Shown piece by piece: positions 5,209 through 54,597 of a DNA stretch of 64,000 bases. Below the pieces are notes generated by a model. That model had not been told where the DNA came from. It saw only the letters and a list, made by a program, of their open reading frames with translations, and did no database searches. The first letter of the stretch is position 1. The number at the start of each line of letters is the position of its first letter. A program made the position numbers and the translations under genes. Source of the DNA: Escherichia coli (GTDB taxonomy: Bacteria > Pseudomonadota > Gammaproteobacteria > Enterobacterales > Enterobacteriaceae); assembly GCF_030384885.1 (NCBI RefSeq), contig NZ_CP128613.1. One strand, written 5' to 3'.

Positions 5209-6498
5209 TTAGCTGAACAGGGAGTAGAAGATTGCGGAGATTGCAATCAGACCCATCACGACAACGAATACGTTGCTGATGTGACCGCTGTACTTACGCA
5301 TTGCCGGTACTTTCTGGATTGCGTACATCGGCATCAGGAACAGGATCATTGCGATGATTGGGCCGCCCAGGGTTTCAATCATACCCAGGATGCTCGGGTT
5401 CAGGGTGGCAACAATCCAGGTCGTTACCAGCATGAACAGCGCAGTGATACGGTTCAGCTTGTTGATTTCGATAGACTTACCTTTACCACGCAGAGATTTA
5501 ATCACCATACCGTTGAAGCCTTCACGTGCACCCAGGTAGTGGCCGAGGAAGGATTTGGTGATAGCGATAATCGCGATAATCGGAGCCATCCACGCGATAA
5601 CCGGTGCGTTAAAGTGGTTAGCCAGGTAAGACAGAATCGAGATGTTCTGCTCTTTAGCCGCAGCCAGGTCTGCCGGAGTCAGGCTCAGTACGCAGCTGAA
5701 TACGAAGAACATTACGGTCAGCACCATCATGATGTGTGCGAATGCCAGGATCTTCGAGCATTTCTGTTCTGCCATATCGCCGTACTCTTCACGCTTCGCA
5801 ACGGCGAAAGAAGAGATGATCGGAGAGTGGTTGAACGAGAACACCATGACCGGAATCGCCAGCCACAGGGTCATCCACAGACCGTTGCCGGTTGCCGATG
5901 CAGTGTCCAGAGACAGCGTTTCCAGTGCTGCGCCGTTCCACTGCGGGATCAGGTACAGAGCCAGCAGCATCAGTACACCAACAAACGGGAATACCAGAAT
6001 ACTCATCGCCTTCACGATCATCTGCTCACCGAAGCGAACAATGGTCATCATACCCACAATCAGGATCAGAGACAGAATCGCACGCGGCGGCGGCGTCATA
6101 CCCAGCTGGTGAGACATGAAGCTTTCAACCGTGTTGGTGATTGCCACACTGTAAACCAGCAGGATCGGGTAGATAGCAAAGAAGTAGAGCAGGGTAATCA
6201 GTTTACCTGCACCAATACCAAAGTGTTCTTCTACAACCTCGGTGATGTCTTCGCCTGGGTTTTTACCAGACAGTACGAAGCGAGTCAGGCCGCGGTGAGC
6301 AAAAAACGTCATCGGGAACGCAAGGATAGCCATGATGATCAGCGGGATCATACCGCCAACACCGGCGTTGATTGGCAGGAACAGCACGCCCGCGCCGATT
6401 GCCGTGCCGTAAAGGCCCAGCATCCACATGGTGTCTGTCTTGCGCCATGCACTACGTGAGTCTTTCGACACAATCGTGCTGGTTTGAGTCGTTTCCAT
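5209..6498 (-). CDS. sdaC: Serine:H+ symporter (HAAAP family)
   Basis: ORF (M)[31 protein letters not shown]...; polytopic membrane protein; start probably the second Met. Confidence 0.9.
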
Positions 6499-7054
6499 CA
6501 ATTTCTCCTGGAGGAATGCAAATAATTCAGCTTTTAGCCAGTTCAGCCCGGGAAGGTGCCTGACCGTAAAAATGAAATCTGTCTATCGGCGATGGCTTAA
6601 TCATTTTCCGCCGTAATAATTTGAGGGCGGAAAGATACACACAAGTTATGTATCTATCAGTGATCTTGATCTCAAATACAATAATCTACTTGGAAGATAG
6701 ATAATCTCAACGCTTTACTCTGTAAATCAAAAGTAAAAGAGAATTTAAGGGCAATATTTGCCCATTAAACGACATCTGACCTCTTCCGGGGCGCGCAATA
6801 TATGTAGGTTGAGCTGAAAAAATCAATACTTTTAGTGAATAATGGGGATAATTTATTTTTCATAGCGATAAAATGTGGTTTGTGAAAATAGGGAAACGTT
6901 TGCGTTGCAATATAAATTGTATGACATATTAACTGTGATGATATTTATCGCGTGAGGACGGTAAGAAACATTTATATAACAAATGAAATGAATTGATGAG
7001 TAAGTAACCAAAAACGAGAAAACCCGGCAACAAATGTCACCGGGGAAGGGGAGA

Positions 7055-8419
7055 TTACGTGCAGATTTCGTAGCAAGGGATGTACGCTGAGCCTGGCAAC
7101 TTCATACGATGCTGGGCAACAAAACCCTGTAGCAGGTCGTCCATACGACGCATAATCTCTTTATCGCCGTTGATTTTATAAGGACCAAACTCTTCAATGG
7201 CGCGAATACCGACTTCTTTTACGTTACCCGCCACAATACCGGAGAACGCACGACGTAGATCAGCGGCCAAAACTTCTACTGGCTGATCCGGGTACAGTTT
7301 CAGATTAGCCATGTTCTCGTGAGACGGCTCAAACGGCATTTGCAGATCGGGCGCAATGCGCATTGACCAGTTAAAGCTGTAGGCATCGCCCGTATCGCGA
7401 CGGTTTTCTTTCACCAGCGGCATCGATTTTTTCATCTGACGAGCGACTTCAGCGGCGTCATCAATGATGATGCGATAATGGCGTCGCGCGTTTTCTCCCA
7501 GCGTATGCACGACAAACTCGTCCAGTACGCGGAAGTAGTCTGCGCTCTCTTTCGGGCCGGTGAGGATCAATGGTAAAACCTGATCTTTGTTGGCCGGGTT
7601 CATTAAAATTCCCAGCAAATACAGCAACTCTTCTGCCGTACCCACACCGCCAGGGAAGATAATGATACCGTGAGCGATACGGACAAACGCTTCCAGACGT
7701 TTTTCGATATCTGGCATGATGATCAATTCGTTGACCAGCGGGTTAGGCGGTTCAGCGGCGATAATCGACGGCTCTGTCATACCAATAAAACGACTGTCTT
7801 TGTAACGCTGCTGTGCGTGTCCGACCGCAGCACCTTTCATCGGCGCTTCCATCGCTCCCGGACCACAGCCGGTGCAGATATTCAGCTCACGCAGGCCCAG
7901 CTGATTCCCGACGCGACGGGCATACAAATACTCGTTTTCGTTAATTGAGTGCCCGCCCCAGCAGACCACCATATTTGGCGCTTCACCGACATGCAGTGCG
8001 CGAGCGTTACGCAAGATGGAAAAGACCAGGTTAGTGATGTGGACGGAGTTGTCGAGATTCAGGTTGGGAAAACGAACGGTGTTATGGATTTGCCCGTAAA
8101 CGAAGAGAATGTCACGCAGAACCGCGAACAAGTTGGCCTGCAAAGCGCGGATAATACGCCCATCGACAAAAGCTTCTTCCGGGGGATTAATCAGTTCCAG
8201 CTTTACGCCGCGTTCACGGCGCAGGACGTTAATATCGAAATTTTCAAAACGAGACAGCAATTCTTTGCTGTTATCAGTCAAACTACCGGAGTTCAGTACG
8301 GCAAGTGAACAGTTGCGAAACAGTTGATAGAGGTCGCTGCTGGCGGTGCGTTTAAGCATATCCACTTCCAGCTGCGACAGCATATCCATGGAGCCAAGCG
8401 GGCTAATATGTGTAATCAA
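7055..8419 (-). CDS. ppnN: Nucleotide 5'-monophosphate nucleosidase PpnN (LOG family)
   Basis: 454-aa ORF with the PGGxGTxEE LOG-family motif ([11 protein letters not shown]); position between sdaC and queF. Confidence 0.85.
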
Positions 8420-31265: not shown

Positions 31266-31937
31266 ATGCAGTACCCGATTAACGAGATGTTCCAGACCCT
31301 GCAAGGTGAGGGTTACTTTACCGGCGTCCCCGCCATTTTTATTCGTTTACAGGGATGCCCGGTCGGCTGTGCCTGGTGCGACACCAAACACACCTGGGAA
31401 AAGCTTGAGGATCGGGAAGTCTCCCTTTTCAGCATTCTGGCGAAGACCAAAGAGAGTGATAAGTGGGGGGCGGCGAGCAGTGAAGATTTGCTGGCTGTCA
31501 TTGGTCGTCAGGGATACACCGCGCGGCATGTGGTGATTACGGGTGGTGAGCCTTGCATTCATGATTTGCTGCCACTGACTGACCTGCTCGAAAAGAACGG
31601 TTTTAGCTGCCAGATCGAAACCAGCGGTACTCATGAAGTACGCTGCACGCCGAATACCTGGGTTACCGTATCGCCAAAGCTGAACATGCGCGGCGGCTAT
31701 GAAGTGTTGTCACAGGCACTGGAACGAGCCAACGAAATCAAGCATCCAGTGGGACGCGTACGTGATATTGAAGCACTGGATGAACTACTGGCAACGCTGA
31801 CCGATGATAAACCACGAGTCATTGCACTGCAGCCAATTAGCCAGAAGGACGATGCCACACGTTTGTGCATTGAAACCTGTATTGCGCGTAACTGGCGTTT
31901 ATCGATGCAAACACATAAATATTTAAATATTGCCTGA
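31266..31937 (+). CDS. queE: 7-carboxy-7-deazaguanine synthase (radical SAM)
   Basis: 223-aa ORF MQYPINEMFQTLQGEGYFTGVPAIFIRLQGCPVGCAWCDTKHTW with radical-SAM Cys cluster. Confidence 0.9.
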   Translation: MQYPINEMFQTLQGEGYFTGVPAIFIRLQGCPVGCAWCDTKHTWEKLEDREVSLFSILAKTKESDKWGAASSEDLLAVIGRQGYTARHVVITGGEPCIHDLLPLTDLLEKNGFSCQIETSGTHEVRCTPNTWVTVSPKLNMRGGYEVLSQALERANEIKHPVGRVRDIEALDELLATLTDDKPRVIALQPISQKDDATRLCIETCIARNWRLSMQTHKYLNIA

Positions 31938-32275
31938 TTAAACATTTATAAGCGTTATAAATGGGTGGAACCTGTAAAGACTTCCACTCATTTATATTCT
32001 TTGTCGCCTCTGAAAAACCTCCATTTTGCTCATCCTGGACTAATCATTATCATTCTCTACAAATTCTATGGCGTTAATTTTTCGTTGGAGTGAAAATTAT
32101 TGCGGTAAAGTTTGGTAGATTTTAGTGGGTATAGAGTTATCTAAAATATTTACTTTTTTAATCAATGGATTAAGTGTTCTTTAACATAATGGATGTGTTG
32201 TTTGTGTGATCCTGTAAAGTTGGTAGATTGTGACTGGCTTAAAAAATCATTAATTAATAATAGGTTATGTTTAGA

Positions 32276-33219
32276 GAGTTCCCCGCGCCAGCGGGGATAA
32301 ACCGCAAAAACATGCCTCTAATCGCCTCATATCGCCGAGTTCCCCGCGCCAGCGGGGATAAACCGTGAATTCGCGGTCGTCGGTAGTTATTGTCACAGAG
32401 TTCCCCGCGCCAGCGGGGATAAACCGTTTATATCCCCGATACGCACGACGCGGACCGGGAGTTCCCCGCGCCAGCGGGGATAAACCGCCCCGCCCTCCTG
32501 CACCACGATCGCGCCCTCAGAGTTCCCCGCGCCAGCGGGGATAAACCGCCTTACGCCTGCAACCTCGTGCCACAGTTCATGAGTTCCCCGCGCCAGCGGG
32601 GATAAACCGGTTTTCAGTCCAGCGGCAGCTACGAGGAATCGGAGTTCCCCGCGCCAGCGGGGATAAACCGGATGGTTGAGGGTTATATGATGCCAGTTTA
32701 CGGAGTTCCCCGCGCCAGCGGGGATAAACCGGCAAAAACCGGGCAATCGCAAAAAGGCGTAATGAGTTCCCCGCGCCAGCGGGGATAAACCGACGCTGAT
32801 TATTCCGTACCAGTATTGTGAGGCGAGTTCCCCGCGCCAGCGGGGATAAACCGGATGACTCTGTGGCCTGGGTGGTTACCTGTCTGAGTTCCCCGCGCCA
32901 GCGGGGATAAACCGCCCTGCCCGTTTTGCGGGAGTTCCAATGTTGAGAGTTCCCCGCGCCAGCGGGGATAAACCGCATTATTTTTAGACGGTTGCGGGAT
33001 TGGATTAGAGTTCCCCGCGCCAGCGGGGATAAACCGCGGCCTGGTCGATATCTCGCTGCTAGCGTCAAGAGTTCCCCGCGCCAGCGGGGATAAACCGTAA
33101 GATGATCTCACGGAATTGAACGAACTACGGAGTTCCCCGCGCCAGCGGGGATAAACCGGACACAGAGCGCTGCTATAGCGCCTATGCCAAGAGTTCCCCG
33201 CACCAGCGGGAATAAACCA
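32276..33219 (+). CRISPR. Type I-E CRISPR array: 16 repeats, 15 spacers of 32 nt
   Basis: 29-bp repeat GAGTTCCCCGCGCCAGCGGGGATAAACCG at a strict 61-bp period, starting 32276, 32337, 32398 ... 33191; the last repeat is degenerate (gagttccccgcaccagcgggaataaacca); AT-rich leader upstream at about 31940-32275. Confidence 0.97.
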
Positions 33220-33690
33220 CCATATAACCCGTTATCTCTTTCTCAAGTTTTTATATTAGCAGTACTCGTATTAAGCAACATATCCACGTAACACCTCATG
33301 TTCAAAATAGCTCTCCATATATGAGAAGTTCACAATTATCGATACAAAAAATCAAATTTAATTAAAGTGTTAGTTGTATGATACTTAAATCATTAAGAAA
33401 TTATCATATATTATTTTTTTAATATTGAATTGATGTTTGTTAATTTTTTCTTTAGGATAATGGTTTGTTTTTTAAGCTTATTATTCATTGATTAAGTAAT
33501 AAATCTGGAAGTTTGTCTTTGTTTTGAGGCTAATGAGTGATTTTACATAATCGCCTCTATACGCTGTTGATGAATAGTTCTTATGAATAAAGATATCCAG
33601 TTCATACTTTAAGTGAAAATTGATAAAGTACGATTCGCATAGTCTTTTATTCTAAGGACATCGATTGTAGTTAATATTCCTTGTAAAAAC

Positions 33691-33763
33691 AGGGATAAAC
33701 CGGACTTGTTATAATTCTTGATGTTGTCGAACTTATGTTCCCCGCGCCAGCGGGGATAACCAT
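33691..33763 (+). CRISPR. Degenerate orphan mini-array (partial repeat, one spacer, degenerate repeat)
   Basis: cagggataaaccg + roughly 33-nt spacer + gttccccgcgccagcggggataacc; lies about 470 bp beyond the main array, after an AT-rich leader-like stretch. Confidence 0.7.
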
Positions 33764-33808
33764 TCAGGTATGTTCAGGCCGGGCATTTTCCCGCCCGGCC
33801 TTCCTCAC

Positions 33809-35287
33809 TTACGCATTCGACCAGCTCTGGATCGAATCTGCATTCCCCAACTCACCATGCATCACTTCATACGATTTTTTCAGGATCACATCAGTGTGTT
33901 TGGTTAGGTCTTTGAAAATGCCTTTATTCATCGCGTCGTAGCGTTTGGCATTGCTCTCAATCGGCATAAAGATATCTTTCACGCGAACCATTTTGTCGAC
34001 AGCCGTTGCGTAATCCGGGTATAGCCCCAGACCTACCGCCGTATTAATCGCTGCCCCCAGGCTTGCACAACCGTTAATGGCGTTACGTCGTGCCGGAAGG
34101 TTGAACACGTCGGCAAAAATTTGCATAAACAGATCGCTGTTCGAACCGCCGCCAGTAATGATCACATGTTTCGCAAAGTGATTCATTTCATGACACATAT
34201 TGTCGTAATTGTTCTTCAGCGTCAGCGCCACGCTTTCCAGTATCGAACGATATATCCATGCGTAATCCATGCTGGAATCAAAGCCGATCATAATCCCGCG
34301 TTTGTACGGTTCCCACGGATTGGTCAGCCAGTCCAGCACCGTCATCAGACCATTACAGCCAGGCGGCACACAAGAAGCTTTTTTGTTGAGCAAATCTTCC
34401 GGTGAAAGATCCTGTGCCCTGGCATCCTGAATTAACGACTCGCCTAACATGTCGCGAAGCCAGCTCACCGTCCACATGCCTTTGCGAATACCGTAACCTT
34501 CATACAGCAAGGTTTGCGGAATAGAAGACATAATCGGCCAGTACGCTACCGGATCTTTCGGCAGTACTTTGCCGTTCATCATCAACGCGATGTAAGTGCC
34601 AAGAGAAATTACCGCCGTTTCATCATCCAGTAACCCGGCTCCCAGTGCTTCTACCGGTTTATCACTGGTGGTACAAACAACTGGCAGCCCAGCCGGGAAA
34701 TGTGTCGCCAGCGCGGCTTGTGGTGTGATATGCCCAAGAACAGTGCCCGGCATTTGCACATCAAAAAGCATCTGTCGGGGAATATTAAACTTCTCCATTA
34801 CCGCGGTATCTTCGCTCCATGCCCAGGTCTTATAATCCACCGGCCACTGACCAAAATAGTTGGCGATATTGTCTTTAAACTCGCCGGTTAAACGGTGTGT
34901 CAGATAACCTGAAAAAGAGGTGGCATATGCCACATCAGGATTGGTGTGCTCGTAGGGACGTGTTACGCGTGCATCCTGCCAGCTAATCAACGGCGCAGCT
35001 GGCGTGCCATCGGCTTTCAATAACGCACGGCAGCAACGGATAGATCCCAGACCAATGCCGACAATATCTTCTTTATTCCCGGCAAACTGGCTCATCAAAT
35101 CGTGACCAGCAAAACATAATGATGCCCATAAATCATCGTCAGGATGTTCTGCGGTATCGGCATCTGGAGTGTGCATCGGTTGTAATAAGCCTTTGCCTTC
35201 GCAAACCACGTTACCTTCCAGATCGTACATCACCACTTTTGTGCTCTGACTTCCGCCATCAATCCCTATGATGTATTTTTTCGACAT
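33809..35287 (-). CDS. ygcE: FGGY-family carbohydrate kinase
   Basis: 492-aa ORF MSKKYIIGIDGGSQSTKVVMYDLEG... with FGGY N- and C-terminal signatures. Confidence 0.82.
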   Translation of the reverse strand: MSKKYIIGIDGGSQSTKVVMYDLEGNVVCEGKGLLQPMHTPDADTAEHPDDDLWASLCFAGHDLMSQFAGNKEDIVGIGLGSIRCCRALLKADGTPAAPLISWQDARVTRPYEHTNPDVAYATSFSGYLTHRLTGEFKDNIANYFGQWPVDYKTWAWSEDTAVMEKFNIPRQMLFDVQMPGTVLGHITPQAALATHFPAGLPVVCTTSDKPVEALGAGLLDDETAVISLGTYIALMMNGKVLPKDPVAYWPIMSSIPQTLLYEGYGIRKGMWTVSWLRDMLGESLIQDARAQDLSPEDLLNKKASCVPPGCNGLMTVLDWLTNPWEPYKRGIMIGFDSSMDYAWIYRSILESVALTLKNNYDNMCHEMNHFAKHVIITGGGSNSDLFMQIFADVFNLPARRNAINGCASLGAAINTAVGLGLYPDYATAVDKMVRVKDIFMPIESNAKRYDAMNKGIFKDLTKHTDVILKKSYEVMHGELGNADSIQSWSNA

Positions 35288-50256: not shown

Positions 50257-51690
50257 GTGACTTTCTTTGATTTCTGGGGAAAAACCCGACGTGGCGAGAA
50301 AGAGGGTGGCGACGATTATCACCTTCTTTGCTGGCATTCGCTGGATGTAGCCGCGATAGGCTATTTAATGGTCAAAAACAACTGTTTCGGGCTGGCTGAC
50401 TATTTTCGTCAATTAGGTTTCGCTGACACGGATCAGGCAGCACAATTTTTCGCCTGGTTGTTGTGCTGGCACGATACTGGAAAATTTGCCCGCTCATTTC
50501 AGCAACTTTACCTGCACCCACAACTCAAGGTTCCGGAAGGCGCAAGAAAGAATTACGAAAAGATCTCTCATTCAACGCTGGGTTACTGGTTGTGGCATCA
50601 TTATTTAATTGAATGTGAAGAGTTGCTTCCTTCATCTTCACTCTCTTTGCGCAAACTTAAACGAGTAATAGATATGTGGATGCCCGTGACGACCGGGCAT
50701 CATGGTCGGCCTCCTGACCGTATCGATGAACTGGACAACTTTCTGCCTGAAGACAAAGCTGCCGCACGGGATTTTCTCCTTGAAATCAAGGTACTGTTTC
50801 CGCTCATCGAGATCCCTACATTCTGGGATGATGACGAGGGCGTTGAACTTATAAAACATTTTTCCTGGTATATCTCTGCAACCGTCGTACTCGCAGACTG
50901 GACGGGATCGTCAACGCGGTTTTTTCCACGCGTTGCACAGGCAATGGATATTAAAGATTACTGGCAGAAGGCTTTAGTTCAGGCTCAAAACGCATTAACC
51001 GTCTTTCCCCCAAAAGCAGAAAGCGCGCCTTTCACTGGAATTAATACGCTGTTTCCTTTTATTGAGAACCCAACACCGTTACAGCAAAAGGTGTTGGATC
51101 TGGATATCAGCCAGCCAGGACCACAGTTGTTTATTCTGGAAGATGTGACTGGCGCAGGTAAAACAGAAGCGGCGCTTATCCTGGCGCACAGGTTGATGTC
51201 TGCGGGGAAAGCACAGGGTTTGTTTTTTGGTTTGCCAACAATGGCAACGGCCAATGCCATGTACGATAGGCTGGTAAAAACCTGGCTTGCTTTCTATTCG
51301 CCACAATCCCGCCCCAGCCTGGTGCTGGCACACAGCGCTCGTTCGCTAATGGATCGCTTTAACGCATCGCTGTGGTCTGGTGATTTTGTGGGGTCAGAAG
51401 AACCGGATGAACAAGCGTTCAGTCAGGGATGTGCGGCCTGGTTTGCTGACAGTAACAAGAAGGCGTTGCTGGCTGAAATTGGCGTCGGCACGCTGGATCA
51501 GGCGATGATGGCGGTGATGCCGTTCAAACATAATAATCTGCGGCTTCTGGGGCTGAGTAACAAAATCCTGCTAGCCGATGAGATCCACGCCTGTGACGCT
51601 TATATGTCGTGCATTCTTGAAGGGCTGATCGAGCGGCAGGCGCGTGGCGGAAACAGCGTTATTTTGCTTTCTGCTACGTTGCCGGGGTAG
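50257..51690 (+). pseudogene. cas3: cas3 (type I-E), 5' fragment: HD nuclease plus helicase motifs I-III, premature stop
   Basis: 477-aa ORF with Walker A (VTGAGKTEAA), DExH (LLADEIHACD) and SAT motifs, stopping right after SATLPG; full Cas3 is roughly 890 aa. The start codon is non-ATG (likely GTG); my own count places it at 50258, one nucleotide off the track. Confidence 0.85.
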
Positions 51691-51746
51691 GGATACGGCG
51701 TGATGACACCGAATGCTTAAACGCGTTTAATCGCCACTATTCACTG

Positions 51747-52304
51747 GTGGTTTGCGCCAGCCGTAACCCGCGCTGGGCACGGGATTATCACACGGTCCAG
51801 ATGCCAAAAGAGGTGCGTAAAGCGCGTTATTTCAGCCGTCGCGAAGAGTTGAGCGCCCCTGATCTTCTAAGCGCGATTATCTCCCGGCGCGACTACTACA
51901 CCGATGCCTGGTGGATGGTGGCCGTGGCAACAACAGCTGATGCGCCTTACAGCCTCGAACAGTTGCAGGAAGGTTTACGCCATCCGGTTTTTCCGCTTTA
52001 TCTGGGGCGAAAAAGCCATCCGCTGGCATTACCCCTTGCGCCGTTACTGCTTGAAGGTAACGCGTCTGATGCCTTACGTAACGCATACCAACAGTATCAG
52101 GATCGTTTCCACGAACTGAAAGTCTCACTCCCGAAACTTCAGGATGAATGCTGGTGGGAAGGGGAGCACGATGGCCTGGTCTCGAGCAAAATATTACGCC
52201 GCCGGGATGTTCCTTTAAATCGTCAGCAGTGGCTGTTTGGGGAACGCACCGTCAATCAGGGGCCGTGGCTCAGCAAGGAGGAACCATGTACCTCTCAAGA
52301 ATAA
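51747..52304 (+). pseudogene. casD: casD (cas5e) 3' remnant
   Basis: Frame contains RDYHTV ... PLYLGRKSHPLALPL, matching the C-terminal two-thirds of Cas5e as I recall it; no N-terminal region; its 3' end overlaps the casE start as in intact operons. Confidence 0.65.
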
Positions 52305-54240: not shown

Positions 54241-54574
54241 GTGTGTTCCCCGCGCCAGCGGGGATAAACCGAATACCCAGCGCTATTTCGAGCGCGAGAG
54301 AGTGTGTTCCCCGCGCCAGCGGGGATAAACCGGAAATTTCGGAAATTAAATCCGCTCGCGATCGGTGTTCCCCGCGCCAGCGGGGATAAACCCCATGGCA
54401 GGAAGAGCGGATGATTTAGGGGTAAGTGTTCCCCGCGCCAGCGGGGATAAACCGAAGCCGGATCACATTTTCTTAGCGGAGCTGACGTGTTCCCCGCGCC
54501 AGCGGGGATAAACCGCTCTCGGTTCTGGGGTACTGTTACCCATAACTGAGCTCCCCCGCGTCAGCGGGGGAACT
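54241..54574 (+). CRISPR. Type I-E CRISPR array beside cas2: 6 repeats, 5 spacers of 32 nt
   Basis: GTGTTCCCCGCGCCAGCGGGGATAAACCG at a 61-bp period, starting 54241, 54302, 54363, 54424, 54485; terminal degenerate repeat at 54546 (gagctcccccgcgtcagcgggggaactcc); AT-rich leader 54147-54240. Confidence 0.95.
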
Positions 54575-54597
54575 CCCAACTCCCATTTTCAAACGCC

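Follow-up and report, generated by a model that had tools for sequence, protein, structure and literature searches.

The CRISPR-II Locus between queE and ygcE

The feature analysed here lies between two convergent genes in a stretch of 64,000 nucleotides from an Escherichia coli contig (NZ_CP128613.1), to which we refer as the window. The order of elements is queE (ygcF), leader2.3, CRISPR2.3, an AT-rich tract, CRISPR2.2, a GC hairpin, and ygcE, and the elements that frame the tract and CRISPR2.2 are the following:

31266-31937, plus strand: queE (ygcF), flanking gene; the RefSeq annotation of an identical strain agrees
31938-32275, plus strand: leader2.3, the functional leader of CRISPR2.3, 338 bp, AT-rich, running from the queE stop to the first repeat; the standard of comparison for leaders
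32276-33219, plus strand: CRISPR2.3, 16 repeats and 15 spacers with a 61-nt period; the same span is a CRISPR in RefSeq for strain 2013C-4282
33776-33801: GC hairpin, 10-pair stem, 7 nt from the ygcE stop codon
33809-35287, minus strand: ygcE (FGGY-family carbohydrate kinase), stop codon at 33809-33811; the flanking gene that defines the locus

From 33160 to 33830, the window is 100% identical to E. coli strain 2013C-4282. The RefSeq CRISPR annotation covers the 16-repeat array only, and PGAP gives the mini-array downstream of it no annotation. The main array of 15 spacers was correctly described in the original prediction; its last repeat occupies 33191-33219 and has 3 mismatches. Upstream of it, the leader2.3 segment is 94% identical to the leaders of K-12 and of E69, a divergent lineage labelled E. 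coli, and it carries a boxA-like motif (GTTCTTTAACA) at -100 and a block (AGTTGGTAGATTGT) at -58 that it has in common with leader2.1. A boxA-like element in a type I-E leader has been shown for Salmonella (PMC7665894).

According to the literature, the ygcE-ygcF interval of E. coli, CRISPR-II, holds either one array (CRISPR2.2-3) or CRISPR2.2 and CRISPR2.3, 0.5 kb apart, and leaders have been named for CRISPR2.1 and CRISPR2.3 only (PMC3903273, PMC3737337). The window, whose G+C content is 50.6%, also contains a second type I-E array with its own leader, CRISPR2.1 (54243-54577), consisting of five GTG-type (“T”) repeats and a degenerate terminal repeat near 54548. The repeats of CRISPR2.3 are of the GAG type (“A”), while the second and third CRISPR2.2 repeats have T at position 2, as CRISPR2.1 does. 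Elsewhere, between 27509 and 29618, a GC-rich segment, ACCAGCG..GCCACCGCCAGAAGAACCGCC, recurs in four copies, which are probably repetitive coding sequence.

A Vestigial Array Orthologous to CRISPR2.2

Beyond the AT-rich tract, three elements form the mini-array:

33674-33702, plus strand: R1, degenerate first CRISPR2.2 repeat, ATATTCCTTGTAAAAACAGGGATAAACCG, 29 nt; 18/29 consensus matches
33703-33734, plus strand: S2, the sole spacer remaining in the window allele, 32 nt; 4 substitutions relative to the species-wide form
33735-33763, plus strand: R3, terminal CRISPR2.2 repeat, ATGTTCCCCGCGCCAGCGGGGATAACCAT, hairpin intact and 3′ end degenerate; 24/29 consensus matches

The original prediction had recognised here a partial repeat (cagggataaaccg), a spacer of roughly 33 nt, and a degenerate second repeat. 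The first of these does derive from a repeat, but it belongs to a full slot of 29 nt, whose 3′ end it forms, and is not a partial copy; the spacer is real and measures exactly 32 nt, the canonical length in type I-E systems; and the degenerate second repeat is R3, just as described. R1 and R3 stand in the 61-nt register. R1 folds in the canonical register with a 7-bp stem and a 4-nt loop, at -7.9 kcal/mol as against -15.1 for the consensus, its loop and stem sequence being altered, while R3 folds at -15.1 kcal/mol, like the consensus repeat. R1 is unchanged in 7 E. coli strains and E69 (29/29), whereas position 13 of R3 varies, with the consensus C in the window, O157, RIVM, and 2017-02-2CC and T in K-12, C2, LP26, and E69.

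These repeats are not chance matches, given that a search with the 27-nt repeat core (up to 3 mismatches) returned 22 matches in the window, one of them at 33737-33763, against 0 expected in shuffles, and that over 4,000 E. coli genomes retain the structure in the same position. Some part of the region is matched by 4,539 of 5,426 complete E. coli genomes. S2 is carried by 4,062 of them, and in 4,047 of these its identity to the K-12 form reaches 99% or more, with two genomes falling in the 80-90% band. In fact, the region can be followed base by base in K-12, C2, O157, LP26, and RIVM, with an identity to K-12 of 92.7% for the tract and 90.4% for the CRISPR2.2 segment. The comparison with K-12 and other strains that had been called for in the original prediction therefore speaks for conserved repeats, and the “fossil second array” that it had suspected turns out to bear a name already.

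CRISPR2.2 is located at the ygcE end of the interval that separates ygcE from ygcF/queE (PMC3903273), and has been described with three repeats and two invariable spacers (PMC3903273, PMC4489801, PMC3737337). The counts for S2 given above bear out this invariability. The mini-array lies at that place, has type 2 (I-E) repeats, and is orthologous to the K-12 copy; the 454 bp from the last CRISPR2.3 repeat to R1 agree with the distance of about 0.5 kb given for CRISPR2.2. We are thus highly confident that the feature is the vestigial type I-E CRISPR2.2 array of E. coli CRISPR-II, in a rare allele that is most likely inert. CRISPR2.2 itself is already known, and the window allele is a minor variant of it. 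Its nomenclature reportedly goes back to the original description by Diez-Villasenor et al. in 2010, and our literature search found no alternative CRISPR2a/2b nomenclature. To our knowledge, the only use of CRISPR2.2 in E. coli CRISPR typing is that of an invariant landmark. Genome annotation would nevertheless benefit from its recognition, since PGAP leaves the mini-array unannotated.

A Rare Two-Repeat Allele

The usual form of CRISPR2.2 is R1-S1-R2-S2-R3, with spacers of 20 nt (S1) and 32 nt (S2), while the window has R1-S2-R3 only. In K-12, R1 is followed by S1 (AACTAGTTAAAGTTTTTATT, 20 nt), R2 (ATGTTCCCTGCATCAGCGGGGATAAACCG), S2, and R3, and the window is without exactly the 49 nt of S1 and R2. 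The other full-length matches to 33600-33800 are all 250 nt long, compared with 201 in the window, the same 49-nt difference. Although the window does not show the three repeats and two spacers of the published description, it holds a variant allele of CRISPR2.2 and not a different element, because the orthology of the remaining parts is unambiguous.

How rare this allele is can be judged from a 35-mer that spans the R1-S2 junction and whose halves were chosen to be unable to seed a match on their own: it occurs in 2 of the 5,426 complete E. coli genomes, those of the window's strain and of 2017-02-2CC. A scan of one genome per species showed that E69 is also without the 49 nt of S1 and R2. 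At the four-fold sites of ygcE, the divergence of E69 from five E. coli strains is 25-30%, a value equal to that of E. whittamii. Moreover, four E69-like bases just upstream of R1 are common to the window and 2017-02-2CC and absent in five other E. coli strains, while the four changes in S2 are private to the window allele. The simplest reading is that of one old two-repeat allele, common to the window and the E69 lineage by descent or recombination. The existence of such a rare and old allele, common to a divergent Escherichia lineage, is new. In the locus extracted from 2017-02-2CC (about 1740-1830), there is almost no CRISPR2.3, and one truncated repeat precedes the tract.

Because R1 and R2 share the ending GGGATAAACCG, the 49-nt gap is what one would expect from a crossover or slippage. 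Most likely, a single recombination or slippage event between these 11-nt ends would have removed S1 and R2. With three alleles and an unrooted tree, we regard a deletion as the probable direction of the change, because a gain would require that a 20-nt spacer and a well-preserved repeat be placed downstream of an already decayed R1. In type I-E adaptation, spacers are acquired at the leader end, with copying of the first repeat, a process that does not yield such an arrangement. We also considered S1-R2 as a diverged duplicate of S2-R3 and rejected it: S1 and S2 agree at 12/20 positions when anchored (p = 0.023), but p rises to 0.24 over all offsets and is 0.11 with gaps.

Composition of the AT-Rich Tract

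The tract between the two arrays (33220-33673) is 454 bp long, has 26.9% G+C, and contains no open reading frame of at least 30 amino acids wholly within it. The original prediction was right that AT-rich DNA without an open reading frame follows the terminal repeat; its length of about 470 bp comes down to 454 bp because R1 is a full 29-nt slot. Four parts can be told apart within the tract:

33253-33281, plus strand: F1, fossil repeat one period past the terminal CRISPR2.3 repeat, placed by the aligned E69 sequence
33308-33336, plus strand: F2, second decayed unit of the CRISPR2.3 trailer, at +117; K-12 orthologue TAGTTCTCCATGCCAGAGAGGTTCACAAT
33337-33673: AT-rich core, 337 bp
33566-33630: most conserved block of the tract, found in 4,149 of 5,426 genomes

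F1 is beyond recognition in E. coli, but in E69 it reads TCGTTCCCTGTATCAGCAATAAATAACAT, lies exactly 61 nt past that genome's terminal repeat, and matches the consensus at 15/29 positions. F2 matches the consensus at 17/29 positions in K-12, 16/29 in C2, and 11/29 in the window. For comparison, the background per position in the rest of the window is 2.6e-3 for at least 15 matches and 2.4e-4 for at least 17, and chance is an unlikely explanation for such matches at these fixed positions. In the first 145 nt or so of the tract, then, the CRISPR2.3 trailer continues with two more repeat-spacer units, both decayed. That the 0.45-kb tract begins with two additional fossil repeat units has, as far as this analysis goes, the character of a new observation.

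The core is of another kind. Its repeat matches have no phase preference (phase 56 ranks 15-27 of 61), and it has no autocorrelation at a lag of 61. Among 80 ygcE loci from other species, only that of E69 shares the core with E. coli. A mobile origin was considered and rejected, as no homologues were found in phages and the matches in plasmids were three mislabelled E. coli chromosomes. A search of Rfam with 31900-33900 gave two sub-threshold chance matches only, both inside CRISPR2.3, and none for the core. The conserved block at 33566-33630 is at least 99% identical to the window in 3,763 of its 4,149 carriers, or 91% of them, and E69 has 2 differences in it.

An Ancestral Hairpin and the Single CRISPR2.2-3 Arrays

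The GC hairpin that the original prediction had placed before the ygcE stop is present. A simple terminator scan does not call it, because it has no T-run. In Citrobacter, Klebsiella, Cedecea, Enterobacter, and others, the convergent queE and ygcE lie within about 40-100 nt of each other, with a GC hairpin between the stops and no CRISPR there. For instance, the hairpin of Citrobacter Cu233 (GCCGGGTGGACATTTTCCGCCCGGC) has the same position as that of the window and resembles it. In our extracted loci, the hairpins of other genera (L009, L010, L018, L021, and L035) lie around 7477-7520. Because the hairpin is present in these genera, which have no CRISPR at this place, the whole of CRISPR-II must have been inserted, in Escherichia, between the queE stop and an ancestral hairpin. 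This identification of the flanking hairpin as the pre-CRISPR queE/ygcE hairpin is new and fixes the insertion point of CRISPR-II.

Other occupants of this interval have also been observed. Unrelated DNA replaces CRISPR-II between queE and the ygcE hairpin in E. coli RMDEC465 (locus L005, 1805-2530), where it includes an annotated hypothetical open reading frame of 87 amino acids, and in SCPM-O-B-8794 (L034, 7477-7617). In Klebsiella spallanzanii (L035, 10734-12038), there is a type I-E array of 22 repeats on the far side of queE, at a distance of about 3.2 kb from ygcE, and not between both genes as in Escherichia.

Single CRISPR2.2-3 arrays occur in E. coli B2-type strains such as LF82 and MS1685 (PMC2941450). 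In E. albertii, E. whittamii, and E. coli MS1685, we found leader2.3 followed by zero to four ordinary repeats and a terminal repeat of the R3 type that immediately precedes the hairpin; the tract is missing. The MS1685 and E. whittamii arrays end in the same terminal repeat as the window, and in E. albertii the copy at the end of the array has diverged further. That of MS1685 combines the 5′ GAG of the CRISPR2.3 type with the T13 and 3′ end of the R3 type, which is the outcome to be expected if a CRISPR2.3 repeat had recombined with R3. In Escherichia sp. MOD1-EC7003, all that is left of the terminal repeat before the hairpin is its 3′ end, and the repeats of this genome are preceded by sequence other than leader2.3.

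Alternative Readings of the Tract and of Its Conservation

Leader function resides in the repeat-proximal 60 nt. Anchored alignments of this segment were scored against dinucleotide shuffles, with the true leaders as positive controls, and gave the following values:

leader2.3 and the window's leader2.1: z 5.35, score reached by 0/500 shuffles
leader2.3 and the K-12-type leader2.1: z 3.93, 0/500 shuffles
tract and leader2.3: z 1.31, 64/500 shuffles
tract and the window's leader2.1: z 0.47, 171/500 shuffles
tract and the K-12-type leader2.1: z -0.80, 400/500 shuffles

Over 60 nt as well as over 100 nt, the tract cannot be aligned to any of the three true leaders (z from -1.2 to 1.3), while leader2.3 aligns with the window's leader2.1 at z 3.3-5.4 and with the K-12 leader2.1 at 3.9 over 60 nt and 1.9 over 100 nt. 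The original prediction had proposed that the array has its own leader or belongs to a duplicated leader-repeat unit. This part of it finds no support, as the z values of the tract over 60 nt (-0.8 to 1.3) are to be set against those of the leaders among themselves (3.9-5.4). Such a comparison of the tract with leaders, backed by positive controls, is another small addition of this analysis. Of the two observations on which it was to be judged, similarity to the leaders could not be demonstrated, yet the repeats are conserved in related genomes.

One rival reading takes the tract for a leader that has decayed past recognition, a paralogue of leader2.3 and leader2.1 that perhaps arose with a duplicated leader-repeat unit. 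The tract is AT-rich, lies directly upstream of R1 in the orientation of the repeats, and is best conserved in the 110 nt or so next to R1. Its best local alignment with leader2.3 covers the region of the boxA-like motif, but is marginal (11/300 shuffles reach it), and an anchored alignment over 150 nt gives z = 2.4, reached by 6/500 shuffles. There are also weak matches in the tract at -97 (GTTCTTATGAA) and -56 (AATTGATAAAGTAC), collinear with the boxA at -100 and the leader block at -58; however, a joint collinear match to both is found in 6.9% of shuffles, and when the 337-bp core is aligned globally to leader2.3, z is 0.63. Given also that the literature knows leaders for CRISPR2.1 and CRISPR2.3 only (PMC3903273, PMC3737337) and that our survey of S2 shows no spacer ever added to CRISPR2.2, we find it improbable that the tract is or was a leader, and it should not be read as a second one. 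The same low standing has the proposal that the whole tract is the decayed part of one formerly continuous array, CRISPR2.2-3, whose old trailer end would be CRISPR2.2. The two fossil repeats, which keep phase with the terminal CRISPR2.3 repeat at +61 and +117, point in this direction, as do the position of R1 exactly 6 x 61 nt past F2 in E. coli and the single CRISPR2.2-3 arrays that end in the same R3-type repeat. Nevertheless, the F2-R1 register is not kept in E69, and the core (33337-33673) has neither an excess of repeat matches at the expected phase nor the lag-61 autocorrelation that such an origin calls for. It is implausible that G+C should have decayed from about 60% to about 22% with no indels; the best preserved repeat is R3, although in a continuous array it would be the oldest; and the chimeric terminal repeat of MS1685 shows that CRISPR2.2-3 came from a deletion between two arrays. 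We therefore doubt this proposal and keep to a tract of which only the first part derives from CRISPR2.3.

The conservation of the mini-array raises the question of whether it has been kept, together with some 110 nt upstream (33566-33763 in all), by selection for a non-immune role, be it as an invariant crRNA carrying S2 or as an RNA or DNA element that insulates CRISPR2.3 transcriptionally from the convergent ygcE, with the two-repeat allele as the older form. Of 4,062 genomes, 4,047 have an identical S2, as 91% of its carriers do for the block 33566-33630, R1 is identical at 29/29 positions between E69 and E. coli against a gene-wide four-fold divergence of 26-29% at ygcE, and the hairpins of R1 and R3 are retained. 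From 33566 to R3, the divergence from E69 is about 7.5%, compared with about 34% in the distal tract. However, the local neutral yardstick is low as well. The last 50 codons of ygcE have 3-9 third-position differences from E69, where other stretches have 10-17 per 50 codons. Along the whole gene (33809-35287, against 6001-7479 of the E69 locus, L007), stretches of low and high third-position divergence alternate, with the window closest to E69 beside CRISPR2.2, and this alternation suggests a recombination mosaic across the locus. Selection is thus not required to account for the low divergence between 33566 and R3, because the adjacent 3′ end of ygcE is equally little diverged and a patch of more recent shared ancestry suffices. 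In line with this, the conservation of the block 33566-33630, R1, and S2 looks highly significant in a binomial test against the gene-wide four-fold divergence of ygcE, but selection was rejected when judged on the low-divergence 3′ end of that gene. Selection on the R1 hairpin was rejected too: its pairing is kept, but our own combinatorial count, which is not the output of a tool, predicts as much by chance in about 16-20% of cases when C decays to T and G to A, and the pairing is therefore not evidence of selection. Furthermore, the tract is absent from about 24% of E. coli genomes, the window allele has shed S1 and R2 and has 4 altered bases in S2, and no chromosomal target of S2 was found in E. 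coli genomes. In our judgement, a selected non-immune role is very unlikely, more so than either of the two origins discussed for the tract.

Immune Function

An active type I-E array has a leader with conserved repeat-proximal motifs upstream of its first repeat, turnover of spacers, and complete cognate cas genes. The tract offers no such leader upstream of R1, and S2, at least 99% identical in 4,047 of 4,062 genomes, does not turn over. Searches of phages, plasmids, and the rest of the E. coli genomes found no protospacer of S2. Promoter-like and terminator-like sites are not more numerous than in shuffles; the only promoter-like site near CRISPR2.2, at 33524-33551, is a 9/12 match. The cas genes are incomplete. 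The cas operon of the window (50257-52304, with the junction near 51680) has a 4.6-kb internal deletion relative to O157:H7. Its cas3 is truncated after about 1,466 nt, so that the 3′ half is gone, and cse1/casA, cse2/casB, cas7e, and the first 122 nt or so of cas5e are missing, while cas6e, cas1e, cas2e, the leader, and CRISPR2.1 are kept. Because these 4.6 kb of the operon have been lost, interference is impossible in the window strain, which, judging by the genes it keeps, could still adapt and process crRNA.

As regards CRISPR2.2, it most likely does nothing in immunity, given that it has no recognisable leader, no spacer turnover, and no target for S2, that its R1 is badly decayed, and that Cascade has been lost. 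A counterpoint to inertness is that the R1 hairpin is in the canonical register and that R3 is intact. At most, transcripts reading through from CRISPR2.3 might be cut by Cas6e at the intact R3 hairpin.

Comparison with Known Systems

The closest known system is the CRISPR2.2 of K-12 and of most strains, which lies at the same locus, about 0.5 kb from CRISPR2.3, and whose R1, S2, and R3 are orthologous to those of the window. In contrast to its 3 repeats and 2 spacers, the window allele has 2 repeats, 1 spacer, and 4 substitutions in S2. The tract, for its part, is like leader2.1 and leader2.3 of E. coli in being AT-rich and 5′ of a repeat in the transcribed orientation, but unlike them it has no significant similarity to a leader and neither the -58 block nor the boxA-like motif above chance. 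The CRISPR2.2-3 arrays of LF82, MS1685, E. albertii, and E. whittamii share with the window leader2.3 and an R3-type terminal repeat beside the ygcE hairpin; they are without the AT-rich tract, R1, and S2, whereas the window keeps two separate arrays. Finally, the mini-array resembles the degenerate terminal repeats and orphan arrays of type I-E systems in its repeat decay, its loss of G+C, the absence of an adjacent leader or cas genes, and its lack of spacer turnover, although it departs from them in that its most decayed repeat (R1) stands upstream and its best preserved one (R3) is terminal.
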